Shown one piece after another: positions 6,741 to 25,093 of a DNA stretch of 64,000 bases. Position 1 is the first letter of the stretch. Each line of letters begins with the position of its first letter. The DNA is from Escherichia coli (lineage in GTDB: Bacteria; Pseudomonadota; Gammaproteobacteria; Enterobacterales; Enterobacteriaceae). Under the pieces are notes generated by a model that worked only from the letters and a program-made list of their open reading frames with translations, did no database searches and was not told the origin of the DNA. A program made the translations under genes and the position numbers. The DNA is taken from NCBI RefSeq assembly GCF_003018255.1, contig NZ_CP027440.1. One strand, 5' to 3'.

Positions 6741-8006
6741 ATGAGCAACAATGAATTCCATCAGCGTCGTCTTTCTGCTACCCCACGCGGGGTTGGCGTG
6801 ATGTGTAACTTCTTCGCCCAGTCGGCAGAAAACGCCACGCTGAAGGATGTAGAGGGCAACGAATATATCGATTTCGCCGCAGGCATTGCGGTACTGAATA
6901 CCGGGCATCGCCACCCTGATCTGGTCGCGGCGGTGGAACAGCAATTGCAACAGTTTACCCACACGGCGTATCAGATTGTGCCGTACGAAAGCTACGTCAC
7001 GCTGGCGGAGAAAATTAACGCCCTTGCCCCGGTGAGCGGGCAGGCTAAAACTGCGTTCTTCACCACCGGTGCGGAAGCGGTGGAGAACGCGGTGAAAATC
7101 GCCCGCGCCCATACCGGACGCCCTGGCGTGATTGCGTTTAGCGGCGGCTTCCACGGTCGTACATATATGACCATGGCGCTGACCGGAAAGGTCGCGCCGT
7201 ACAAAATCGGCTTCGGCCCGTTCCCCGGTTCGGTATATCACGTACCTTATCCGTCAGATTTACACGGCATTTCAACGCAGGACTCCCTCGACGCCATCGA
7301 ACGCTTGTTTAAATCGGACATTGAAGCGAAGCAGGTGGCGGCGATTATTTTCGAACCGGTTCAGGGCGAAGGCGGTTTCAACGTTGCGCCAAAAGAGCTG
7401 GTTGCCGCCATTCGCCGCCTGTGCGACGAGCACGGCATTGTGATGATTGCCGATGAAGTGCAAAGCGGCTTTGCGCGTACCGGTAAAATGTTTGCCATGG
7501 ATCACTACGCCGATAAGCCGGACTTAATGACGATGGCGAAAAGCCTCGCAGGCGGGATGCCGCTTTCGGGCGTGGTCGGTAACGCGAATATTATGGACGC
7601 GCCCGCGCCGGGCGGGTTGGGTGGTACCTACGCCGGGAACCCGCTGGCGGTGGCTGCCGCGCACGCTGTGCTCAACATTATCGACAAAGAATCACTCTGT
7701 GAACGCGCGAATCAACTGGGCCAGCGCCTGACAAACACGTTGATTGATGCCAAAGAAAGCGTTCCGGCCATCGCGGCGGTACGCGGTCTGGGGTCTATGA
7801 TTGCGGCAGAGTTTAACGATCCGCAAACGGGCGAGCCGTCAGCGGCGATTGCACAGAAAATCCAGCAACGCGCGCTGGCGCAGGGGCTGCTTCTGCTGAC
7901 CTGTGGCGCATACGGCAACGTGATTCGTTTCCTGTATCCGCTGACCATCCCGGATGCGCAATTCGATGCGGCAATGAAAATTTTGCAGGATGCGCTGAAC
8001 GATTAA
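6741..8006 (+). CDS. puuE: 4-aminobutyrate aminotransferase (PLP-dependent class III aminotransferase)
   Basis: 421-aa ORF; class III aminotransferase features; synteny. Confidence 0.9.
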   Translation: MSNNEFHQRRLSATPRGVGVMCNFFAQSAENATLKDVEGNEYIDFAAGIAVLNTGHRHPDLVAAVEQQLQQFTHTAYQIVPYESYVTLAEKINALAPVSGQAKTAFFTTGAEAVENAVKIARAHTGRPGVIAFSGGFHGRTYMTMALTGKVAPYKIGFGPFPGSVYHVPYPSDLHGISTQDSLDAIERLFKSDIEAKQVAAIIFEPVQGEGGFNVAPKELVAAIRRLCDEHGIVMIADEVQSGFARTGKMFAMDHYADKPDLMTMAKSLAGGMPLSGVVGNANIMDAPAPGGLGGTYAGNPLAVAAAHAVLNIIDKESLCERANQLGQRLTNTLIDAKESVPAIAAVRGLGSMIAAEFNDPQTGEPSAAIAQKIQQRALAQGLLLLTCGAYGNVIRFLYPLTIPDAQFDAAMKILQDALND

Positions 8007-11407: not shown

Positions 11408-13087
11408 ATGAAACAGAAAATTACGGATTACCTGGACGAAATCTACGGTGGAACATTTACCGCAACTCATTTACAGAAACTTGTAACGCGTCTTGAGAGT
11501 GCGAAACGATTAATTACACTGCGACGTAAAAAACACTGGGATGAAAGTGATGTCGTGTTAATCACCTATGCCGATCAATTTCACAGTAATGATTTAAAAC
11601 CACTACCCACATTTAATCAGTTTTACCCTCAATGGCTGCAAAGCATTTTTTCACATGTTCATTTATTACCTTTTTATCCATGGTCATCTGATGATGGCTT
11701 TTCGGTAATTGATTATCATCAGGTCGCCAGTGAAGCAGGGGAGTGGCAGGATATTCAGCAACTCGGTGATTGCAGTCATTTAATGTTTGATTTTGTCTGC
11801 AACCATATGTCGGCAAAAAGTGAATGGTTTAAAAACTATTTACAACAGCAGCCAGGTTTTGAAGATTTTTTTATTGCGGTTGATCCGCAAATCGATCTCA
11901 GCGCCGTCACCCGTCCGCGTGCGTTACCGTTATTAACGCCATTCCAGATGCGCGATAATTCAACGCGTCATTTATGGACCACCTTTAGCGACGATCAAAT
12001 TGACCTCAATTACCGTAGCCCTGAAGTGTTACTGGCGATGGTGGATGTTTTACTGTGTTACCTTGAGAAAGGTGCTGAGTATATCCGTCTGGATGCCGTT
12101 GGCTTTATGTGGAAAGAGCCGGGAACAAGCTGCATCCATCTGGAAAAAACACATCTGATTATCAAACTGTTACGGTCGATTATTGATAACGTTGCGCCAG
12201 GCACAGTGATCATTACCGAGACCAATGTTCCGCATATAGACAACATTGCTTACTTTGGCAACGGTGATGACGAAGCGCATATGGTGTACCAGTTCTCGCT
12301 GCCGCCGCTGGTGCTGCATGCGGTGCAAAAACAGAACGTTGAGGCACTTTGTGCGTGGGCGCAAAACCTGACACTACCTTCCAGCAACACCACCTGGTTT
12401 AACTTCCTTGCCTCTCACGATGGCATCGGGCTTAACCCACTGCGGGGGTTGTTGCCCGAAAACGAAATATTAGCGCTGGTCGAGGTGTTACAGCAGGAAG
12501 GGGCATTAGTAAACTGGAAAAATAATCCCGACGGTACGCGTAGCCCCTATGAAATGAATGTCACCTATATGGATGCGTTGAGCCGCCGTGAGTGTAGCGA
12601 CGAAGAACGGTGTGCCAGGTTTATTCTCGCCCATGCGATTTTGTTAAGTTTCCCCGGTGTGCCAGCGATATATATTCAAAGCATTCTGGGGTCGCGTAAT
12701 GATTACGCAGGTGTCGAAAAACTTGGATATAATCGTGCGATTAACCGTAAAAAATACTCTAGTAAAGAGATAACGACAGAACTGAACAATAAAGCGACAT
12801 TAAGGTATTTGATATATTATAAGTTGTCGCATTTAATTACACTTCGTCGCAGTCATAAAGAGTTTCATCCGGATAATAATTTCACCATTGATGCGATTAA
12901 TTCATTTGTAATGCGAATTCAAAGAAGCAATGCGGATGGCGATTGCCTGACGGGATTGTTTAATGTCAGTGAAAATATTCAGCATATAAATATTACTGAC
13001 CTGCACGGTCGGGATCTGATTAGTGAAGTTGATATATTGGGTAATGAAATAACACTGCATCCCTGGCAGGTTATGTGGATTAAATAA
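11408..13087 (+). CDS. ycjM: Glucosylglycerate phosphorylase (GH13_18 sucrose-phosphorylase-like)
   Basis: ORF 11381..13087; ATG at 11408 gives MKQKITDYLDEIYGG (559 aa); GH13 features. Confidence 0.85.
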   Translation: MKQKITDYLDEIYGGTFTATHLQKLVTRLESAKRLITLRRKKHWDESDVVLITYADQFHSNDLKPLPTFNQFYPQWLQSIFSHVHLLPFYPWSSDDGFSVIDYHQVASEAGEWQDIQQLGDCSHLMFDFVCNHMSAKSEWFKNYLQQQPGFEDFFIAVDPQIDLSAVTRPRALPLLTPFQMRDNSTRHLWTTFSDDQIDLNYRSPEVLLAMVDVLLCYLEKGAEYIRLDAVGFMWKEPGTSCIHLEKTHLIIKLLRSIIDNVAPGTVIITETNVPHIDNIAYFGNGDDEAHMVYQFSLPPLVLHAVQKQNVEALCAWAQNLTLPSSNTTWFNFLASHDGIGLNPLRGLLPENEILALVEVLQQEGALVNWKNNPDGTRSPYEMNVTYMDALSRRECSDEERCARFILAHAILLSFPGVPAIYIQSILGSRNDYAGVEKLGYNRAINRKKYSSKEITTELNNKATLRYLIYYKLSHLITLRRSHKEFHPDNNFTIDAINSFVMRIQRSNADGDCLTGLFNVSENIQHINITDLHGRDLISEVDILGNEITLHPWQVMWIK

Positions 13088-13100
13088 AAAGGAACATTTC

Positions 13101-14393
13101 ATGATTAAATCAAAAATCGTGCTGTTATCAGCACTGGTTTCCTGCGCCCTGATTTCAGGCTGTAAAGAAGAAAATAAAAATAATGTATCCATCGAATTTA
13201 TGCATTCTTCGGTGGAGCAGGAGCGCCAGGCCGTCATCAGCAAATTGATTGCCCGTTTTGAAAAAGAAAACCCAGGTATCACCGTAAAACAAGTGCCCGT
13301 GGAAGAAGACGCCTATAACACCAAAGTCATTACCCTTTCACGTAGCGGTTCGCTGCCGGAAGTGATCGAAACCAGCCATGACTACGCCAAAGTGATGGAC
13401 AAAGAGCAGCTTATCGATCGTAAAGCGGTTGCCACGGTCATCAGCAACGTCGGTGAAGGCGCGTTCTACGATGGCGTACTGCGGATTGTGCGCACCGAAG
13501 ATGGCAGCGCCTGGACCGGTGTTCCTGTCAGCGCATGGATTGGCGGGATCTGGTATCGCAAAGATGTGCTGGCAAAAGCTGGGCTGGAGGAGCCAAAAAA
13601 CTGGCAGCAATTGCTGGACGTTGCACAGAAACTGAATGACCCGGCGAATAAAAAATACGGTATTGCGCTGCCTACAGCAGAAAGCGTGTTGACGGAACAG
13701 TCTTTCTCCCAGTTTGCGTTATCCAATCAGGCTAACGTCTTTAACGCCGAAGGCAAAATCACCCTTGATACACCAGAGATGATGCAGGCGCTGACCTATT
13801 ACCGCAACCTTGCTGCCAACACCATGCCAGGTTCTAACGACATCATGGAAGTGAAAGACGCTTTTATGAACGGCACCGCGCCGATGGCGATTTACTCCAC
13901 CTATATCCTTCCGGCTGTGATTAAAGAAGGCGATCCGAAAAACGTTGGTTTCGTTGTACCCACCGAGAAAAACTCTGCGGTCTACGGCATGTTGACCTCG
14001 CTGACCATTACCGTCGGGCAAAAGGCCGAAGAGACGGAAGCGGCTGAAAAATTTGTCACCTTTATGGAGCAGGCAGACAACATTGCCGACTGGGTGATGA
14101 TGTCGCCAGGCGCGGCGCTGCCGGTGAACAAAGCGGTTGTCACTACCGCCACCTGGAAAGACAACGACGTTATTAAGGCGCTGGGTGAGCTGCCAAATCA
14201 GTTAATCAGCGAACTGCCAAATATTCAGGTCTTTGGCGCAGTAGGGGATAAAAATTTTACCCGCATGGGCGATGTGACGGGTTCTGGCGTGGTGAGCTCC
14301 ATGGTGCATAACGTCACCGTGGGTAAAGCCGACCTCCCTGGCACGCTGCAAACGAGCCAGAAAAAGCTGGATGAGTTGGTTGAACAGCGCTAA
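13101..14393 (+). CDS. ycjN: ABC transporter periplasmic sugar-binding lipoprotein
   Basis: 430-aa ORF with lipoprotein signal (LISGC); synteny. Confidence 0.85.
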   Translation: MIKSKIVLLSALVSCALISGCKEENKNNVSIEFMHSSVEQERQAVISKLIARFEKENPGITVKQVPVEEDAYNTKVITLSRSGSLPEVIETSHDYAKVMDKEQLIDRKAVATVISNVGEGAFYDGVLRIVRTEDGSAWTGVPVSAWIGGIWYRKDVLAKAGLEEPKNWQQLLDVAQKLNDPANKKYGIALPTAESVLTEQSFSQFALSNQANVFNAEGKITLDTPEMMQALTYYRNLAANTMPGSNDIMEVKDAFMNGTAPMAIYSTYILPAVIKEGDPKNVGFVVPTEKNSAVYGMLTSLTITVGQKAEETEAAEKFVTFMEQADNIADWVMMSPGAALPVNKAVVTTATWKDNDVIKALGELPNQLISELPNIQVFGAVGDKNFTRMGDVTGSGVVSSMVHNVTVGKADLPGTLQTSQKKLDELVEQR

Positions 14394-14413: not shown

Positions 14414-15295
14414 ATGAACAGGCTTTTTTCAGGTCGTTCCGATATGCCCTTTGCGCTGTTGCTTCTCGCGCCCAGCTTATTACTGCTGGGCGGTCTGGTG
14501 GCGTGGCCGATGGTGTCGAATATCGAAATCAGTTTTTTACGTCTGCCGCTTAATCCCAACATCGAGTCAACGTTTGTTGGGGTGAGCAACTACGTGCGTA
14601 TTCTCTCCGATCCCGGCTTCTGGCACTCGCTGTGGATGACGGTCTGGTATACCGCGCTGGTGGTGGCGGGCAGCACCGTGCTCGGGCTGGCCGTGGCGAT
14701 GTTTTTCAACCGCGAGTTCCGCCTGCGCAAAACCGCGCGTTCGCTGGTGATCCTCTCCTACGTAACGCCGTCTATTTCGCTGGTGTTCGCCTGGAAATAC
14801 ATGTTCAACAACGGTTACGGCATTGTGAACTACCTCGGCGTCGATCTTCTGCATCTCTATGAGCAGGCACCGCTGTGGTTCGATAATCCGGGCAGTAGCT
14901 TTGTGCTGGTGGTGCTGTTCGCCATCTGGCGCTACTTCCCCTATGCCTTTATTTCGTTTCTGGCGATTTTGCAGACCATCGACAAATCGCTGTACGAAGC
15001 GGCAGAGATGGATGGCGCTAATGCCTGGCAACGGTTTCGTATCGTCACGCTGCCCGCGATTATGCCGGTCCTGGCGACGGTGGTGACCCTGCGCACCATC
15101 TGGATGTTCTACATGTTCGCGGATGTTTATCTGCTGACCACCAAGGTCGATATTCTCGGTGTCTATCTCTACAAAACCGCCTTTGCCTTTAATGACTTAG
15201 GGAAAGCGGCGGCGATCTCGGTGGTGCTCTTCATCATTATTTTCGCTGTCATTCTGCTGACCAGAAAACGGGTGAACCTCAATGGCAACAAATAA
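14414..15295 (+). CDS. ycjO: ABC transporter permease (MalF-like)
   Basis: 293-aa polytopic membrane ORF; synteny. Confidence 0.85.
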   Translation: MNRLFSGRSDMPFALLLLAPSLLLLGGLVAWPMVSNIEISFLRLPLNPNIESTFVGVSNYVRILSDPGFWHSLWMTVWYTALVVAGSTVLGLAVAMFFNREFRLRKTARSLVILSYVTPSISLVFAWKYMFNNGYGIVNYLGVDLLHLYEQAPLWFDNPGSSFVLVVLFAIWRYFPYAFISFLAILQTIDKSLYEAAEMDGANAWQRFRIVTLPAIMPVLATVVTLRTIWMFYMFADVYLLTTKVDILGVYLYKTAFAFNDLGKAAAISVVLFIIIFAVILLTRKRVNLNGNK

Positions 15296-16124
15296 ACGCA
15301 CACTCAGTCGCATCGGTTTTTACTGCGGGCTGGCGCTGTTTCTCATCATCACGCTGTTTCCGTTTTTTGTGATGCTGATGACCTCGTTCAAGAGCGCAAA
15401 AGAGGCGATCTCGCTGCATCCTACGCTGCTGCCGCAACAGTGGACGCTGGAGCATTATGTCGACATTTTTAACCCGATGATTTTCCCGTTTGTCGACTAC
15501 TTCCGTAACAGCATGGTGGTGTCGGTGGTTTCATCCGTGGTGGCGGTATTTCTCGGCATTCTCGGAGCTTACGCGCTTTCCCGCCTGCGCTTTAAAGGCC
15601 GGATGACCATCAACGCCAGCTTTTACACGGTGTACATGTTCTCTGGCATTTTGCTGGTGGTGCCGCTGTTCAAAATCATCACCGCGCTTGGTATTTACGA
15701 CACCGAGATGGCGCTGATCATTACCATGGTGACGCAAACCCTGCCCACCGCCGTGTTTATGCTGAAAAGCTACTTCGACACCATCCCTGATGAGATCGAA
15801 GAAGCGGCGATGATGGATGGCCTCAACCGTCTGCAAATCATCTTCCGTATCACCGTGCCCCTGGCGATGTCCGGGCTGATATCCGTGTTCGTCTACTGCT
15901 TTATGGTGGCGTGGAACGACTATCTGTTTGCGTCGATTTTCCTCTCCAGCGCCAGCAATTTCACCTTACCTGTGGGACTGAACGCGCTGTTCAGTACGCC
16001 TGATTACATCTGGGGACGGATGATGGCGGCCTCGCTGGTGACCGCATTGCCGGTGGTGATTATGTACGCGCTTTCGGAACGTTTTATTAAGAGTGGTTTG
16101 ACCGCCGGTGGCGTGAAGGGCTAA
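15282..16124 (+). CDS. ycjP: ABC transporter permease (MalG-like)
   Basis: 280-aa polytopic ORF overlapping the ycjO 3' end; EAA-type loop (EEAAMMDGLNRLQ). Confidence 0.85.
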   Translation: MATNKRTLSRIGFYCGLALFLIITLFPFFVMLMTSFKSAKEAISLHPTLLPQQWTLEHYVDIFNPMIFPFVDYFRNSMVVSVVSSVVAVFLGILGAYALSRLRFKGRMTINASFYTVYMFSGILLVVPLFKIITALGIYDTEMALIITMVTQTLPTAVFMLKSYFDTIPDEIEEAAMMDGLNRLQIIFRITVPLAMSGLISVFVYCFMVAWNDYLFASIFLSSASNFTLPVGLNALFSTPDYIWGRMMAASLVTALPVVIMYALSERFIKSGLTAGGVKG

Positions 16125-16154: not shown

Positions 16155-17207
16155 ATGAAAAAGTTAGTAGCCACAGCACCGCGCGTTGCTGCGCTGGTTG
16201 AGTATGAAGATCGGGCGATTTTAGCCAATGAAGTGAAGATCCGCGTGCGCTTCGGCGCACCGAAGCACGGGACGGAAGTGGTCGATTTCCGCGCTGCCAG
16301 TCCGTTTATCGATGAAGACTTTAACGGCGAATGGCAGATGTTCACCCCGCGTCCGGCAGATGCGCCGCGCGGCATTGAGTTTGGCAAATTCCAGCTTGGC
16401 AACATGGTGGTTGGCGACATTATCGAGTGCGGCAGCGACGTTACCGACTACGCGGTGGGCGACAGCGTATGCGGCTACGGCCCGCTCTCCGAGACGGTCA
16501 TCATTAACGCAGTGAATAACTACAAGCTGCGCAAAATGCCGCAAGGCAGTTCGTGGAAAAACGCTGTCTGCTACGACCCGGCGCAGTTTGCCATGAGCGG
16601 CGTGCGCGATGCCAATGTGCGCGTGGGCGATTTTGTGGTGGTGGTAGGGCTTGGCGCGATCGGTCAAATTGCCATTCAACTGGCTAAACGTGCTGGCGCG
16701 TCGGTGGTGATTGGCGTCGATCCTATCGCCCATCGCTGTGAGATTGCCCGTCGCCACGGCGCGGATTTCTGCCTTAACCCCATTGGCACTGACGTAGGCA
16801 AAGAGATCAAAACGCTAACCGGCAAGCAGGGTGCCGATGTGATTATCGAAACCAGCGGCTATGCCGACGCGCTGCAATCGGCGCTACGAGGTCTGGCATA
16901 TGGCGGCACCATCTCGTATGTCGCGTTTGCCAAACCGTTTGCCGAAGGTTTTAACCTCGGACGCGAAGCCCATTTCAATAACGCCAAAATTGTTTTCTCC
17001 CGTGCGTGCAGCGAGCCGAACCCGGATTATCCGCGCTGGAGCCGCAAACGTATCGAAGAAACCTGTTGGGAACTGCTGATGAACGGTTATCTCAATTGTG
17101 AAGATTTAATCGACCCGGTGGTGACCTTTGCCAATAGCCCGGAAAGTTACATGCAGTATGTCGACCAGCATCCGGAACAGAGCATCAAAATGGGCGTTAC
17201 GTTTTAA
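16155..17207 (+). CDS. ycjQ: Zn-dependent alcohol-dehydrogenase-like sugar dehydrogenase
   Basis: 350-aa MDR-family ORF with Rossmann motif (VVGLGAIGQIA). Confidence 0.85.
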   Translation: MKKLVATAPRVAALVEYEDRAILANEVKIRVRFGAPKHGTEVVDFRAASPFIDEDFNGEWQMFTPRPADAPRGIEFGKFQLGNMVVGDIIECGSDVTDYAVGDSVCGYGPLSETVIINAVNNYKLRKMPQGSSWKNAVCYDPAQFAMSGVRDANVRVGDFVVVVGLGAIGQIAIQLAKRAGASVVIGVDPIAHRCEIARRHGADFCLNPIGTDVGKEIKTLTGKQGADVIIETSGYADALQSALRGLAYGGTISYVAFAKPFAEGFNLGREAHFNNAKIVFSRACSEPNPDYPRWSRKRIEETCWELLMNGYLNCEDLIDPVVTFANSPESYMQYVDQHPEQSIKMGVTF

Positions 17208-17224
17208 TTCAAAGGAATGAAAAA

Positions 17225-18013
17225 ATGAAAATCGGCACACAGAATCAGGCGTTCTTTCCGGAAAACATTCTGGAGAAATTTCGTTATATCAAAGAGATGG
17301 GTTTCGATGGTTTTGAGATCGACGGCAAACTGCTGGTCAACAATCTCGAAGAAGTCAAAGCAGCAATCAAAGAAACCGGTTTACCGGTGATCACCGCCTG
17401 CGGTGGCTATGACGGTTGGATTGGCGACTTTATCGAAGAGCGTCGACTTAATGGCTTAAAGCAGATCGAACGCATTCTTGAAGCTCTGGCAGAAGTGGGC
17501 GGTAAAGGTATCGTCGTTCCGGCTGCATGGGGCATGTTTACCTTCCGCTTACCGCCGATGACCTCGCCGCGTAGCCTGGACGGCGACCGCAAAATGGTGA
17601 GTGATTCCCTGCGCGTACTGGAAAAGGTGGCCGCATGTACCGGAACCGTGGTGTACCTCGAACCGTTAAACCGTTATCAGGATCACATGATCAACACCCT
17701 CGCCGATGCCCGCCGTTACATCGTCGAAAACGATCTTAAACATGTACAGATTATCGGCGATTTCTATCACATGAATATCGAAGAAGATAACCTGGCGCAG
17801 GCGCTGCATGACAACCGCGACCTGCTCGGTCATGTGCATATTGCCGATAACCATCGCTACCAGCCGGGCAGCGGCACCCTGGATTTCCACGCGCTGTTTG
17901 AACAGCTGCGCGCGGATAACTATCAGGGCTATGTGGTGTATGAAGGGCGTATCCGGGCAGAAAATCCTGCCCAGGCGTACCGTGATTCGTTGGCCTGGTT
18001 GCGCACCTGCTAA
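17225..18013 (+). CDS. ycjR: Sugar phosphate isomerase/epimerase (xylose-isomerase-like TIM barrel)
   Basis: 262-aa ORF; synteny. Confidence 0.85.
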   Translation: MKIGTQNQAFFPENILEKFRYIKEMGFDGFEIDGKLLVNNLEEVKAAIKETGLPVITACGGYDGWIGDFIEERRLNGLKQIERILEALAEVGGKGIVVPAAWGMFTFRLPPMTSPRSLDGDRKMVSDSLRVLEKVAACTGTVVYLEPLNRYQDHMINTLADARRYIVENDLKHVQIIGDFYHMNIEEDNLAQALHDNRDLLGHVHIADNHRYQPGSGTLDFHALFEQLRADNYQGYVVYEGRIRAENPAQAYRDSLAWLRTC

Positions 18014-18022
18014 GAGGTCTTT

Positions 18023-19078
18023 GTGAAAAGTGCAATGACAAGCTCTCCGCTGCGTGTCGCGATAATCGGCGCAGGCCAGGTGGCGGATAATGTTCATGCT
18101 TCGTACTACTGCACCCGCAACGATCTGGAACTGGTGGCTGTCTGTGACAGCCGCCTTTCCCAGGCGCAGGCGCTGGCAGAAAAATACGGGAATGCATCCG
18201 TGTGGGACGATCCGCAGGCCATGCTGCTGGCGGTGAAACCTGATGTGGTTAGCGTCTGCTCACCTAACCGTTTTCATTACGAACATACCCTGATGGCGCT
18301 GGAAGCGGGCTGCCATGTGATGTGCGAAAAACCGCCCGCCATGACGGCAGAACAGGCGCGGGAAATGTGCGATACCGCGCGCAAACAGGGCAAGGTGCTG
18401 GCCTACGACTTTCATCATCGTTTTGCACTCGATACGCAACAGCTGCGTGAACAGGTGACCAACGGCGTTTTGGGAGAGATTTACGTTACCACCGCCCGCG
18501 CCCTGCGTCGTTGCGGTGTTCCCGGCTGGGGTGTCTTTACTAATAAAGAATTGCAGGGCGGAGGCCCGCTGATCGACATCGGCATTCATATGCTGGATGC
18601 GGCGATGTATGTGCTGGGTTTTCCAGCGGTGAAAAGCGTGACTGCGCATAGCTTTCAAAAGATCGGCACGCAAAAGAGCTGCGGTCAATTTGGCGAGTGG
18701 GACCCGGCAACCTACAGCGTCGAAGATTCGCTGTTTGGCACCATTGAATTTCATAACGGCGGCATTCTGTGGCTTGAGACCTCATTTGCACTCAACATCC
18801 GCGAACAGTCGATTATGAACGTCAGCTTTTGTGGTGATAAAGCCGGGGCGACGCTGTTTCCAGCACATATCTACACCGATAACAACGGTGAGTTAATGAC
18901 GCTGATGCAACGGGAAATGGCAGACGACAACCGTCATCTGCGCAGTATGGAAGCCTTTATCAACCACGTACAAGGTAAGCCCGTGATGATAGCCGACGCC
19001 GAGCAGGGATACATCATCCAGCAACTGGTGGCGGCGCTTTATCAATCCGCAGAAACAGGGACGCGTGTGGAATTATGA
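18023..19078 (+). CDS. ycjS: Gfo/Idh/MocA-family NAD-dependent oxidoreductase
   Basis: 351-aa ORF with N-terminal Rossmann (VAIIGAGQVADN); GTG/ATG start region. Confidence 0.85.
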   Translation: MKSAMTSSPLRVAIIGAGQVADNVHASYYCTRNDLELVAVCDSRLSQAQALAEKYGNASVWDDPQAMLLAVKPDVVSVCSPNRFHYEHTLMALEAGCHVMCEKPPAMTAEQAREMCDTARKQGKVLAYDFHHRFALDTQQLREQVTNGVLGEIYVTTARALRRCGVPGWGVFTNKELQGGGPLIDIGIHMLDAAMYVLGFPAVKSVTAHSFQKIGTQKSCGQFGEWDPATYSVEDSLFGTIEFHNGGILWLETSFALNIREQSIMNVSFCGDKAGATLFPAHIYTDNNGELMTLMQREMADDNRHLRSMEAFINHVQGKPVMIADAEQGYIIQQLVAALYQSAETGTRVEL

Positions 19079-21342
19079 TCAGGCCAGTAACGTTAACGGA
19101 ACCCCATTTCAGCCAGCATACCCTGAACAAGTATGCTTCGCTGATGGCGCAGGGGAACGGCTATCTTGGGCTTCGCGCCAGCCATGAAGAAGATTACACG
19201 CGCCAGACGCGCGGCATGTATCTGGCAGGGCTTTATCATCGGGCGGGTAAAGGTGAAATCAACGAACTGGTGAACCTGCCTGATGTCGTGGGGATGGAGA
19301 TTGCCATAAATGGTGAGATTTTCTCGTTATCCCGCGAAGCATGGCAGCGTGAGCTTAACTTTGCCAGTGGCGAATTACGCCGCAACGTTGTCTGGCGTAC
19401 CAGCAACGGCGCAGGTTACACCATCACCAGCCGTCGCTTTGTTTCGGCAGACCAACTGCCGCTCATTGCGCTGGAAATCACTATTACGCCACTGGACGCC
19501 GACGCGTTAGTGCTGATTTCAACAGGCATTGACGCCACGCAAACCAACCACGGACGACAACATCTCGACGAAACCCAGGTGCGGGTGTTTGGTCAGCATT
19601 TGATGCAGGGGATCTATACCACTCAGGATGGACGCAGTGATGTGGCCATCAGCTGTTGCTGCCAGGTGAGCGGTGACGTGCAGCAATGCTATACCGCCAA
19701 AGAGCGCCGCTTGCTGCAACATACCAGTGCACAACTACCTGCGGGCAAAACGCTGTCGCTGCAAAAACGGGTGTGGATCGACTGGCGGGACGACAGACAC
19801 GTCGCTTTAGACGAGTGGGGTAGTGCATCGCTTCGTCAGCTTGAAATGTGTGCGCAGCAGAGTTACGACCAACTTCTTGCAGCATCCACAGAAAACTGGC
19901 GTCAGTGGTGGCAGAAACGTCGTATCACGGTAAACGGCGGCGATGCGCACGATCAGCAAGCGTTAGATTATGCGCTTTATCACCTACGCATCATGACGCC
20001 TGCTCACGACGAGCGCAGCAGTATTGCGGCAAAAGGTTTGACCGGGGAAGGCTACAAAGGCCACGTTTTCTGGGATACGGAAGTATTTTTACTGCCGTTC
20101 CATCTGTTTAGCGAACCGACGATTGCCAGAAGTTTACTGCGTTATCGCTGGCACAACTTGCCTGGCGCGCAGGAGAAAGCGCGACGCAATGGCTGGCAGG
20201 GTGCGCTATTTCCGTGGGAAAGCGCGCGCAGCGGCGAAGAAGAGACGCCGGAATTTGCCGCCATTAACATCCGCACCGGACTGCGCCAGAAAGTGGCCTC
20301 GGCGCAGGCTGAACACCATTTGGTGGCTGATATCGCCTGGGCGGTTATTCAATACTGGCAGGCAACGGGGGATGAAAGTTTCATTGCCCACGAAGGCATG
20401 GCGTTACTTCTGGGAACCGCAAAATTCTGGATTAGCCGCGCTGTACAGGTAAACGATCGTCTGGAAATTCACAATGTTATTGGGCCAGACGAATATACCG
20501 AACATGTCAATAATAACGCCTTCACCAGCTATATGGCGTATTACAACGTCCAGCAGGCGCTGAATATCGCTCGTAAGTTTGGTTGTAGCGACGACGCGTT
20601 TATTCATCGTGCCGAAATATTCCTCAAAGAACTGCGGCTGCCAGAAATTCAGCCTGACGGCGTTTTGCCGCAGGATGATTCGTTTATGGCGAAACCAGCG
20701 ATTAATCTGGCGAAATACAAAGCGGCGGCGGGGAAGCAAACCATTCTGCTGGATTATTCACGCGCAGAAGTGAACGAGATGCAGATCCTCAAACAAGCTG
20801 ATGTGGTGATGCTCAATTACATGCTGCCGGAGCAGTACTCAGCGGCATCGTGTCTTGCCAATCTGCAATTTTATGAACCGCGCACCATTCACGACTCTTC
20901 ACTGAGTAAAGCGATCCACGGCATTGTTGCCGCACGCTGTGGCCTGTTGGCGCAAAGTTATCAGTTCTGGCGCGAGGGGACTGAAATCGATCTTGGTGCT
21001 GACCCGCATAGCTGTGATGACGGTATCCACGCAGCCGCAACTGGCGCTATTTGGCTGGGGGCGATTCAGGGTTTTGCCGGGGTGAGCGTGCGTAACGGTG
21101 AATTGCATCTCAATCCAGCGTTACCTGAGCAGTGGCAACAGTTGTCTTTCCCTCTGTTCTGGCAGGGCTGCGAATTACAGGTCACTCTCGACGCGCAGCG
21201 TATTGCGATTCGAACTTCTGCGCCCGTTTCACTGCGTTTGAACGGGCAGCTTATATCTGTGGCTGAAGAATCTGTTTTCTGTTTGGGTGATTTTATTTTG
21301 CCCTTCAATGGGACCGCTACCACGCATCAGGAGGATGAATGA
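19075..21342 (+). CDS. ycjT: Kojibiose phosphorylase (GH65)
   Basis: 755-aa ORF overlapping the ycjS stop by 4 nt. Confidence 0.85.
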
Positions 21343-21998
21343 AACTGCAAGGGGTAATTTTCGATCTGGATGGTGTAATCACCGATACCGCGCATCTGCA
21401 TTTCAAGGCGTGGCAGCAGATTGCCGCTGAAATTGGCATCAGCATTGATGCGCAGTTTAACGAATCCCTAAAAGGGATCAGCCGCGATGAGTCTCTGCGG
21501 CGCATTCTGCAACACGGGGGCAAAGAGGGCGACTTTAACCCGCAGGAGAGGGCGCAACTGGCGTATCGCAAAAATCTGCTCTACGTCCACTCACTGCGCG
21601 AACTGACGGTTAATGCTGTGCTGCCCGGCATTCGCAATTTGCTGGCAGATCTCCGTGCACAGCAGATCCCTATAGGGCTGGCTTCTGTCTCCCTGAATGC
21701 GCCGACGATTTTAGCAGCGCTGGAGCTGCGCGAGTTTTTCACCTTCTGCGCGGACGCTTCCCAACTTAAAAACTCGAAACCGGACCCGGAAATCTTTCTC
21801 GCCGCCTGTGCCGGACTGGGCGTGCCGCCGCAGGCATGTATCGGCATTGAAGATGCGCAGGCGGGCATTGACGCCATTAACGCCAGCGGTATGCGCTCGG
21901 TGGGGATCGGCGCGGGCTTAACCGGGGCGCAATTATTGTTGCCCTCAACGGACTCCCTGACCTGGCCGCGGTTATCGGCCTTCTGGCAAAACGTATAG
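21339..21998 (+). CDS. ycjU: Beta-phosphoglucomutase (HAD superfamily)
   Basis: 219-aa ORF with HAD motif I ([13 protein letters not shown]); overlaps the ycjT stop. Confidence 0.88.
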
Positions 21999-22011: not shown

Positions 22012-23094
22012 ATGGCACAGCTTTCGTTACAACATATTCAAAAGATCTACGATAACCAGGTGCATGTGGTGAAGGACTTCAACCTGGAGATTGCCGATAA
22101 AGAGTTCATCGTGTTTGTCGGTCCGTCGGGCTGCGGTAAATCGACCACCCTGCGTATGATTGCCGGGCTTGAGGAGATCAGCGGCGGTGATCTGTTGATC
22201 GACGGCAAACGAATGAATGACGTTCCAGCCAAAGCACGCAATATCGCGATGGTGTTCCTGAACTACGCGCTGTATCCGCATATGACGGTCTACGACAACA
22301 TGGCGTTTGGCCTGAAGATGCAAAAAATCGCCAGAGAGGTGATTGATGAGCGGGTGAACTGGGCGGCGCAAATTCTCGGCCTGCGTGAGTACCTGAAACG
22401 CAAGCCGGGCGCGCTTTCCGGCGGGCAACGTCAGCGAGTGGCGCTTGGGCGGGCGATTGTGCGCGAAGCGGGCGTGTTTTTAATGGATGAGCCGCTCTCT
22501 AACCTGGATGCCAAGCTGCGCGTGCAAATGCGCGCAGAGATCAGCAAGCTGCATCAGAAACTGAACACCACCATGATCTACGTGACCCACGATCAGACCG
22601 AAGCGATGACCATGGCGACGCGGATTGTGATTATGAAGGATGGGATTGTTCAGCAAGTAGGTGCGCCGAAAACGGTTTATAACCAACCCGCGAATATGTT
22701 TGTTGCCGGATTTATTGGATCACCGGCGATGAATTTTATTCGCGGCACGATCGATGGCGATAAATTCGTTACTGAAACGCTTAAATTAACCATTCCCGAA
22801 GAGAAATTAGCGGTTCTGAAAACACAGGAAAGTTTGCATAAGCCCATCGTGATGGGAATACGCCCGGAAGATATTCATCCGGACGCGCAAGAGGAAAATA
22901 ACATTTCCGCCAAAATTAGCGTGGCAGAATTAACCGGTGCTGAATTTATGCTCTACACCACGGTTGGGGGGCACGAACTGGTGGTCCGTGCTGGTGCGTT
23001 AAATGATTATCATGCAGGAGAAAATATCACTATTCATTTTGATATGACTAAATGTCATTTCTTTGATGCAGAAACGGAAATAGCAATTCGCTAA
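22012..23094 (+). CDS. ycjV: ABC transporter ATP-binding protein (MalK-like, with C-terminal regulatory domain)
   Basis: 360-aa ORF: Walker A GPSGCGKST, signature LSGGQRQRV, Walker B FLMDEPLSNLD; full length. Confidence 0.88.
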   Translation: MAQLSLQHIQKIYDNQVHVVKDFNLEIADKEFIVFVGPSGCGKSTTLRMIAGLEEISGGDLLIDGKRMNDVPAKARNIAMVFLNYALYPHMTVYDNMAFGLKMQKIAREVIDERVNWAAQILGLREYLKRKPGALSGGQRQRVALGRAIVREAGVFLMDEPLSNLDAKLRVQMRAEISKLHQKLNTTMIYVTHDQTEAMTMATRIVIMKDGIVQQVGAPKTVYNQPANMFVAGFIGSPAMNFIRGTIDGDKFVTETLKLTIPEEKLAVLKTQESLHKPIVMGIRPEDIHPDAQEENNISAKISVAELTGAEFMLYTTVGGHELVVRAGALNDYHAGENITIHFDMTKCHFFDAETEIAIR

Positions 23095-23138
23095 ATACAG
23101 GGGGAAGGCATTCCCCCAGGATAATACAAGGAACAATA

Positions 23139-24044
23139 ATGAAAAAGTTATTACCCTGTACCGCACTGGTGATGTGTGCGGGAATGGCCTGCGCACAGGC
23201 CGAGGAAAAGAACGACTGGCACTTTAATATCGGCGCGATGTACGAAATAGAAAACGTCGAGGGTTATGGCGAAGATATGGATGGGCTCGCGGAGCCTTCT
23301 GTCTATTTTAATGCCGCCAACGGGCCGTGGAGAATTTCTCTGGCCTATTATCAGGAAGGGCCGGTAGATTATAGCGCGGGTAAACGTGGAACGTGGTTTG
23401 ATCGCCCGGAGCTGGAGGTGCATTATCAGTTCCTCGAAAGCGATGATTTCAGTTTCGGACTGACCGGCGGTTTCCGTAATTATGGTTATCACTACGTTGA
23501 TGAACCGGGTAAAGACACGGCGAATATGCAGCGCTGGAAAATCGCGCCAGACTGGGATGTGAAACTGACTGACGATTTACGTTTCAACGGTTGGTTATCG
23601 ATGTATAAATTTGCCAACGATCTGAACACGACCGGTTACGCTGATACCCGAGTCGAAACGGAAACAGGTCTGCAATATACCTTCAACGAAACGGTTGCTT
23701 TGCGAGTGAACTATTATCTCGAGCGCGGCTTCAATATGGACGACAGCCGCAATAACGGTGAGTTTTCCACGCAAGAAATTCGTGCCTATTTGCCGCTGAC
23801 GCTCGGCAACCACTCGGTGACGCCGTATACGCGCATTGGGCTGGATCGCTGGAGTAACTGGGACTGGCAGGATGATATTGAACGTGAAGGCCATGATTTT
23901 AACCGTGTGGGGTTATTTTACGGTTATGATTTCCAGAATGGTCTTTCCGTTTCGCTGGAATACGCGTTTGAGTGGCAGGATCACGACGAAGGCGACAGCG
24001 ATAAATTCCATTATGCAGGTGTCGGCGTAAATTACTCGTTCTGA
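23139..24044 (+). CDS. ompG: Outer membrane porin OmpG (monomeric beta-barrel)
   Basis: 301-aa ORF with signal peptide, aromatic-rich beta-strand pattern, C-terminal ...VNYSF. Confidence 0.9.
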   Translation: MKKLLPCTALVMCAGMACAQAEEKNDWHFNIGAMYEIENVEGYGEDMDGLAEPSVYFNAANGPWRISLAYYQEGPVDYSAGKRGTWFDRPELEVHYQFLESDDFSFGLTGGFRNYGYHYVDEPGKDTANMQRWKIAPDWDVKLTDDLRFNGWLSMYKFANDLNTTGYADTRVETETGLQYTFNETVALRVNYYLERGFNMDDSRNNGEFSTQEIRAYLPLTLGNHSVTPYTRIGLDRWSNWDWQDDIEREGHDFNRVGLFYGYDFQNGLSVSLEYAFEWQDHDEGDSDKFHYAGVGVNYSF

Positions 24045-24094: not shown

Positions 24095-25093
24095 TTATTT
24101 CAACGACATATGCGTGGCAACGGTAATATTTTGTGGTGACGGTTTTCCGGCAATTAAGCGGAATAATAACTCGCAGCTTTGTTGCCCTAACTCCTGCGTC
24201 GGAACATCGATGCCGCCCGGTGCAGGCGTTAAAATAAATGACAGCGTTTCATTGCTATAGCCCACCACCGCTAACTGCTGCGGAATAGCAATATTTTTCT
24301 CTGCTGCCGCACGATAAATGCTCATTAATTTCAGGCTGTCAGTGGCAAATACGGCTTCTGGCAACGGCGACTGGCTTAATAATTGCCGTGCGGCTTGCAA
24401 GGCTGTTTCATGGGTATAACCGCCGTCAACAATCCATTCATCACGCACTGCAATATTATGCGCAGCCAGACTTTGCTTATAGCCATTAACGCGGTCAACC
24501 GAGACATGGACATCAAGCGGAGCATGCAGGCAGGCAATATTTTGATGCCCACTTTCAATTAACGCATCGGTCAACGCAATGCTGTCGCCAAAATTATCGG
24601 TATCGACAGAATAAACATGGGCATATTGACCTTCAACTTTGCCAATTACCACCACCGGAATATCATATTTATCGAGTTGGGCAAAAAATGACTCATCCGC
24701 TGGCGAACTTAGCATAATAATGCCTTTAATCATTTTCTGCTTAATTTTGCTTTCGCATTTTTGTAAGTCTTCTGCCAGGTTGTGCGACGTCTGCAATATC
24801 ACGTCGAAACCTTCTTCTTCAGCTTTGGCGGTGATGGCATGTAAAACTTCCGAGAAAAACGGATTACCCGCCGTAGTTTTGGTCGAACGGGTAGAAATCA
24901 CCATAATGGCATCAAAACCCGAAGAGGTCAGCGCGCGTGCCAGCTTGTTTGGTTGATACTGTAATTCTTCAATGGCCCGTAACACTTTTTCGCGCGCTTC
25001 CGGGGAGATATTGGTTTGCTTATTCAGCACGCGTGATACGGTGGATTTTGATACGCCTGCAACCCTGGCAATATCATAAATAGTAGGGGACAT
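24095..25093 (-). CDS. ycjW: LacI-family transcriptional regulator YcjW
   Basis: 332-aa ORF; N-terminal HTH ([20 protein letters not shown]) plus periplasmic-binding-protein-like fold. Confidence 0.88.

Follow-up and report, generated by a model that had tools for sequence, protein, structure and literature searches.

The ycj cluster of Escherichia coli is predicted to encode an ABC sugar importer whose ATPase gene, ycjV, is disrupted in the laboratory strain K-12, and the locus raises the question of whether a strain with an undisrupted copy has a working importer that K-12 would lack. We considered this question for the window, i.e., the whole 64,000-nucleotide stretch of contig NZ_CP027440.1 (assembly GCF_003018255.1) that was analyzed here. 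A preliminary description of this DNA had noticed that ycjV is full length and had proposed that the strain may have a functional ycjNOP-ycjV importer.

The window carries a complete ycjV gene

Sequence similarity, gene order and structural comparison identify the gene (Table 1) as E. coli ycjV, predicted to encode the nucleotide-binding subunit of the YcjN-YcjOP ABC sugar importer. The reading frame starts 13 nt after the stop codon of pgmB (ycjU) and is preceded by a ribosome-binding site, which bears out its description as full length; 360 codons are well past chance, yet nothing unusual for E. coli. Pfam assigns ABC_tran (PF00005) to residues 21 to 162 (E value of 3.9e-30), OB_MalK to residues 236 to 288 (E value of 1.7e-14) and TOBE_2 to residues 282 to 351 (E value of 5.1e-10). 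The protein aligns end to end with the solved structure of MsmX (6YIR; E value of 2.6e-147) and, along its length, also with Clo1313_2554, AlgS and MalK. An AlphaFold model of YcjV based on 42 homologues (mean pLDDT of 92.4) matches 6YIR along the entire chain with a TM score of 0.93 and MalK structures with TM scores of 0.85 to 0.92; in its regulatory domain, 12 beta-strands lie within residues 241 to 359, with pLDDT values of 85 to 96. On the basis of the Pfam assignments, the end-to-end alignments and the AlphaFold superpositions, we consider both the ORF and its complete C-terminal regulatory domain to be real, so that the intact MalK-like regulatory domain of the preliminary description is confirmed as well.

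YcjV has the traits of the MalK/MsmX/UgpC-type (CUT1) ATPases, since an OB/TOBE regulatory domain follows its nucleotide-binding domain and since a substrate-binding protein (ycjN) and two BPD_transp_1 permeases (ycjO and ycjP) are encoded alongside. It scores above the cutoff of the NCBIfam UgpC subfamily (NF008653; 479.7 versus 432) and below that of the MalK equivalog (NF008233; 425.2 bits versus 568), and by these scores it is classified as a paralogue of MalK rather than as MalK. The fold, the motif order and the C-terminal OB/TOBE domain are common to YcjV and E. coli MalK (1Q12, 2R6G and 3PUZ), at 45 to 47% identity; however, the Q-loop glutamine of MalK, Q82, corresponds to a leucine in the YcjV of the window and, in contrast to MalK, there is no evidence for regulation of the MalT or EIIA-Glc type for YcjV. 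The best solved relative is MsmX of Bacillus subtilis (6YIR), with 63% identity in the structural alignment. MsmX is a "multitask" sugar-importer ATPase with the same architecture of nucleotide-binding and regulatory domains; it has Q83 at the position aligned with Leu83 of the window protein and, unlike YcjV, which is encoded in its own transporter operon, it is an orphan. The full-length Q83 form of E. coli YcjV has ATPase activity in vitro, and it neither complements a B. subtilis msmX null mutant nor energizes AraNPQ and GanSPQ (PMC7658222).

Within E. coli, the synteny pgmB-ycjV-ompG-ycjW and near-identity to annotated ycjV place the gene in the YcjV orthologue group, and its protein falls into a single 90%-identity cluster with 3,686 member sequences. 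It occupies the same pgmB (ycjU)-ompG locus and has the same 360-codon frame as YcjV of K-12 (b1318); full-length YcjV is represented, for example, by WP_000057985.1 and bears the UniRef name "Maltose import ATP-binding protein YcjV." The ycjV DNA of the window is 97% identical to that of K-12 and 99.4% identical to that of the nearest complete genome (FDAARGOS_536). At the protein level, just three residues set the window copy apart from the K-12-type full-length allele, namely L83 (Q), R108 (K) and A232 (S).

Table 1. Features of the ycj cluster and of the ycjV gene in the window (nucleotide positions of the window; residues of YcjV)
Feature	Position	Strand	Description
ycjM	11408-13087	+	559 aa
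ycjN	13101-14393	+	Substrate-binding lipoprotein; 430 aa, full length; presumed YcjV partner
ycjO	14414-15295	+	Permease; 293 aa, full length; presumed YcjV partner
ycjP	15282-16124	+	Permease; 280 aa, full length; presumed YcjV partner
ycjQ, ycjR, ycjS, ycjT	16155-21342		350, 262, 351 and 755 aa
ycjT	19075-21342		755 aa
pgmB (ycjU)	21339-21998		219 aa
Ribosome-binding site AAGGAA	22001-22006	+	6 nt 5' of the ycjV ATG; direct reading of the sequence
ycjV CDS	22012-23094	+	MalK/MsmX/UgpC-type ABC importer ATPase; ATG to TAA, 360 codons plus stop
Walker A GPSGCGKS	22120-22143	+	Residues 37-44; matches GxxGxGK[ST]
Codon 83, CTG (Leu)	22258-22260	+	Position of the Q-loop glutamine; derived T at 22259, ancestral CAG
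ABC signature LSGGQ	22414-22428	+	Residues 135-139
Walker B VFLMDE	22474-22491	+	Residues 155-160; hhhhDE with the catalytic Glu present
D-loop SNLD	Directly after Walker B	+	Residues 163-166; Walker B to H-loop are invariant columns in alignment A1
H-loop His193	22588-22590	+	Within VTHD, residues 191-194
C-terminal regulatory domain	22717-23091	+	Residues 236-360, complete; OB_MalK, TOBE_2 and model strands
G6 homopolymer	22966-22971	+	Codons 319-320; G5 in K-12, site of the frameshift
ompG	23139-24044	+	Final operon gene; intact, 301 aa
ycjW	24095-25093	-	LacI-family repressor of the ycj operon; divergent, intact, 332 aa

The ycj cluster around ycjV is intact

The window holds the whole intact ycjMNOPQRSTU(pgmB)-ycjV-ompG / ycjW cluster, with gene lengths as annotated in K-12 and FDAARGOS_536; the genes from ycjM to ompG form one operon under YcjW repression (PMC6599011). 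Compared with K-12, the presumed partners of YcjV are equal in length and show 11 amino acid differences in YcjN, none in YcjO and 2 in YcjP, and neither permease has a window-specific change that could serve as a compensatory candidate. Passages of PMC6599011 and PMC11543891 that cite earlier work describe YcjT as a kojibiose phosphorylase and YcjM as a glucosylglycerate phosphorylase, and purified YcjN did not show a thermal shift with kojibiose (PMC11543891). Relative to K-12, YcjM has 34 amino acid differences and YcjT has 35. The nonsynonymous and synonymous codon counts against K-12 are 34/59 for ycjM, 35/100 for ycjT and 0/19 for ycjO and, judging from these counts, constraint along the ycj operon is highly uneven.

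A scan for promoters and terminators around ycjV performed no better than on shuffled sequence. The spacer between ycjV and ompG contains a perfect 7-bp GC-rich hairpin (GGGGGAAGGCATTCCCCC; positions 23100 to 23117), with 6 nt between it and the preceding ycjV stop codon and 21 nt between it and the start of ompG. It has no T-run on the + strand, is adjoined at position 23099 by a SNP of the related assembly GCA_020512365.1 (L007) and could be an mRNA stabilizer or a processing site. Farther upstream, at positions 6741 to 8006, a 421-amino-acid ORF 5' of pspF has the length and position of K-12 puuE, which are the sole basis of its identification. In FDAARGOS_536 (L005, 5921 to 6906), sapA-ymjA adjoins pspF and no puu genes are annotated; possession of the puu cluster seems to vary among strains.

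ycjV is frameshifted in K-12 and full length in most strains

The K-12 truncation, which the preliminary description had put forward, proved to be correct. K-12 ycjV has 1082 nt and is flagged "frameshifted" by PGAP/RefSeq; in the alignment with the window it has lost one G from the G6 tract, and its product of 322 amino acids ends in ...TTVGGTS before the stop codon. The truncation removes native residues 321 to 360 and with them four of the twelve beta-strands that the model shows in the regulatory domain, and according to its sequence K-12 ycjV is a frameshifted, C-terminally truncated pseudogene. The comparison with K-12 had been named beforehand as the test of this reading which, given the difference in length, survives.

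However, full length is nothing special to the strain. An exact 60-mer with the K-12 G5 tract was found in only 370 of the 5,426 complete E. coli genomes, and the G5 genomes among the matches listed are mostly K-12 derivatives (MG1655, DH5alpha, C600, J53 and others); a further 4,625 genomes match this 60-mer only inexactly, with an extra G in the matches listed. By megablast against the same 5,426 genomes, 4,980 (~92%) have a near-full-length ycjV match, with 97 to 99.4% DNA identity and annotated as "ABC transporter ATP-binding protein" between pgmB and ompG, and ~85% of the complete genomes have a copy without the G5 60-mer. Moreover, the "repaired" full-length K-12-type protein occurs naturally, in at least 1000 public contigs. 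Sequence counts of this kind indicate that full-length ycjV is the ordinary, majority state of E. coli and K-12 is the exception, a contrast that is already on record in public annotation.

That the frameshift is unique to K-12 was ruled out by three non-K-12 genomes which have G5 in place of G6 on other allele backgrounds. These are strains 2014C-3051 (NZ_CP027338; L008, 577 to 1658) and 95-3192 (NZ_CP027362; L009, 577 to 1658), in both of which the gene is annotated as "frameshifted" and differs from the K-12 allele by 21 and 15 nt, respectively, and strain 08-00022 (NZ_CP013662). Either the G tract has slipped more than once, or the long-read assemblies contain homopolymer errors. In addition, ycjV was unmatched by megablast in 425 of the 5,426 complete genomes, and in NZ_CM139232.1 (H30) the final 231 nt of ycjV alone remain, annotated as "TOBE domain-containing protein"; a minority of strains appears to have lost ycjV or the cluster by deletion.

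The ycjV passages of three papers on ycj in K-12 (PMC6599011, PMC11543891 and PMC13053599) describe YcjV as the nucleotide-binding domain of the transporter and do not mention the frameshift, and K-12 ycjV is in use as an integration site in metabolic engineering, with loci such as ilvG and ygaY (PMC11731478). MG1655 is reported, second-hand in a passage of PMC6599011, not to grow on kojibiose, a failure that the ycjV frameshift could explain.

The window lineage has leucine in place of the Q-loop glutamine

The most informative difference of the window gene lies in the catalytic site, where a missense change was overlooked in the earlier reading. The protein had been credited with all ABC ATPase motifs, which holds for Walker A, the LSGGQ signature, Walker B, the D-loop and the H-loop but not for the Q-loop glutamine, the one hallmark of an ABC nucleotide-binding domain that the window protein lacks. 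Its Q-loop motif reads MVFLNYALYPH, versus MVFQNYALYPH in relatives. Among 149 homologue representatives obtained by clustering at 50% identity, all 141 Q-loop motifs found have the glutamine, and a column count gave 48 of 48. Glutamine is also found at residue 83 in the 41 other sequences of alignment A1, in all three best solved relatives (MsmX, Clo1313_2554 and AlgS) and in 14/14 other members of the YcjV cluster that were examined, the allele of the nearest relative included. At the DNA level, position 22259 is T in the window and A in K-12 and FDAARGOS_536 (codon CAG, Gln), and by parsimony against these two genomes the derived ycjV changes of the window lineage are a synonymous change at 22122 and Q83L.

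One may suspect a sequencing or assembly error behind the T at 22259, with glutamine in the true gene, a view in favor of which there is nothing but the lack of an exact 60-mer with the Leu83 codon in the 5,426 complete RefSeq E. coli genomes. However, the exact L83 protein (P0002) is found in 70 public contigs (103 index blocks), from independent assemblies under several NCBI accessions. GCA_018259255.1 matches the window without a difference over 21 kb, and identical L83 ycjV DNA is also present in GCA_020512365.1, there with a mosaic ycjP-ycjT segment upstream; the two L83-ycjV assemblies differ elsewhere in the aligned 21 kb at 88 sites and by one indel. Since the same protein recurs in independent assemblies and the same ycjV DNA in two backgrounds, an error can practically be dismissed, and the Q83L allele is real, rare and present in two haplotype backgrounds. 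Between positions 15139 and 20208, ~85 clustered SNPs in ycjP-ycjT separate the window from GCA_020512365.1, with near-identical DNA downstream; this cluster looks like a recombination tract that ends ~1.8 kb upstream of ycjV.

The Q83 version of the window protein (P0165) is encoded in 63 contigs, by lineages that are 13 to 18 nt away in ycjV (1.2 to 1.7% divergence), and all of these differences are synonymous except for Q83L. This distance rules out P0165 as the immediate Q83 parent of the window allele. Since other lineages encode the same protein with Q83, Q83L is the sole nonsynonymous change on a strongly conserved protein, and the pattern suggests that YcjV is under purifying selection across E. 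coli lineages. Among the nearest complete genomes, with 99.8% identity over 25 kb, are those of avian, canine and human isolates. The L83 allele itself is in public databases, and no comment on it was found in the searchable literature.

The same conservation bears on the possibility that ycjV is dispensable in E. coli and is drifting toward a pseudogene, with both Q83L and the K-12 frameshift as neutral decay. Such drift would accommodate the G-tract frameshift on different allele backgrounds in the three non-K-12 genomes, as well as the complete genomes without a ycjV match and the at least one case in which only a 3' remnant is left, but it is at odds with the exclusively synonymous divergence, Q83L apart, between lineages and with the predominance of full-length copies without the G5 60-mer among complete genomes. 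Furthermore, the small sample of ycjV sequences here points toward a dN/dS clearly below 1, and ycjV is, according to a passage of PMC8009128 that cites the finding, a reported hit of screens for bovine colonization by EHEC. We therefore consider neutral decay very improbable.

Predicted effect of Q83L on transport

In ABC importers of this family, two nucleotide-binding domains sit on the coupling helices of the permeases via a cleft that includes the Q-loop, and ATP closes the dimer. Accordingly, in the ycj importer two copies of YcjV would each receive a coupling helix of YcjO or YcjP in the Q-loop/helical-subdomain cleft and would close as a pair around two ATP molecules to drive import, while the C-terminal OB/TOBE domains would keep the dimer together. 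With Q83L, this assembly is predicted to lose the glutamine through which MalK-type transporters contact Mg2+ and the gamma-phosphate and connect the ATP site with the permeases; since YcjV is expected to be a homodimer, both ATP sites would be without it.

Both Mg2+ and the gamma-phosphate are touched by the Q-loop in MalFGK2 structures (PMC6906923), and Q83 of MsmX superposes on or aligns with Q82 of MalK (PMC7658222). A single alanine substitution in a Q-loop of ABCB1 leaves 35 to 50% of the ATPase activity and does not stop transport, whereas the double mutant Q475A/Q1118A is inactive (PMC4505440, PMC7610611). In CFTR, MRP1 and mouse P-glycoprotein, substantial ATP-dependent function survives mutation of the Q-loop glutamine (PMC4447984, PMC7756269). 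No mutagenesis of MalK Q82 or of another type I importer Q-loop glutamine, including Gln to Leu, was found in the searchable literature, and the functional interpretation thus leans on exporter data and on structures.

The continued activity of the CFTR, MRP1 and P-glycoprotein mutants would be in line with a fully functional YcjV in the window, in which Q83L is tolerated and the YcjNOP-YcjV importer works, as it would not in K-12. The intact ORF, the presence of every motif besides the Q-loop, the intact cluster, the occurrence of the L83 allele in 70 contigs and two backgrounds and the in vitro ATPase activity of the full-length Q83 form point in the same direction. We nevertheless regard full function as rather unlikely, given that the glutamine is invariant across all homologues examined, that Q83L stands alone as a nonsynonymous change on an otherwise strictly conserved protein, that leucine has no side-chain oxygen for the Mg2+ contact, and that the homodimer would be hit at both sites, like the inactive ABCB1 double mutant.

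Instead, the account that we favor, with a confidence somewhat better than even, is that of an ordinary intact ycjV, frameshifted in K-12, in which Q83L impairs transport. ATP-driven ycj transport would probably be strongly reduced or lost in the L83 lineage and, if Q83L has this effect, the strain probably has no better ycj importer than K-12, its intact frame notwithstanding. For the L83 allele, the functional importer of the preliminary description is doubtful, as it is weakened both by Q83L at an invariant Q-loop glutamine and by the missing thermal shift of YcjN with kojibiose. The L83 allele persists in two or more distinguishable backgrounds, where ycjV and the rest of the cluster are otherwise undamaged, and this persistence is compatible with retained function or a recent origin. 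Other cellular MalK-type ATPases (MalK and UgpC) might substitute for YcjV. We deem it distinctly unlikely that the L83 importer still transports, the Q-loop glutamine being dispensable, or that Q83L is a selected switch-off of ycj in this lineage.

Implications for ycj research

The gene is ordinary, and Q83L is its small, lineage-specific twist; the result carries little weight beyond annotation hygiene. Given Q83L, an intact reading frame alone is no guarantee of a working YcjV. For ycj research, K-12 is an atypical strain with a frameshifted ATPase, about which several ycj papers are silent in their ycjV passages. For substrate hunting, wild strains with a Q83 YcjV are the right background, and the present lineage is probably unsuitable. 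The L83 allele amounts to a natural test of whether the Q-loop glutamine is essential in a type I importer and, if the L83 transporter works, this "invariant" glutamine would be dispensable in an importer.
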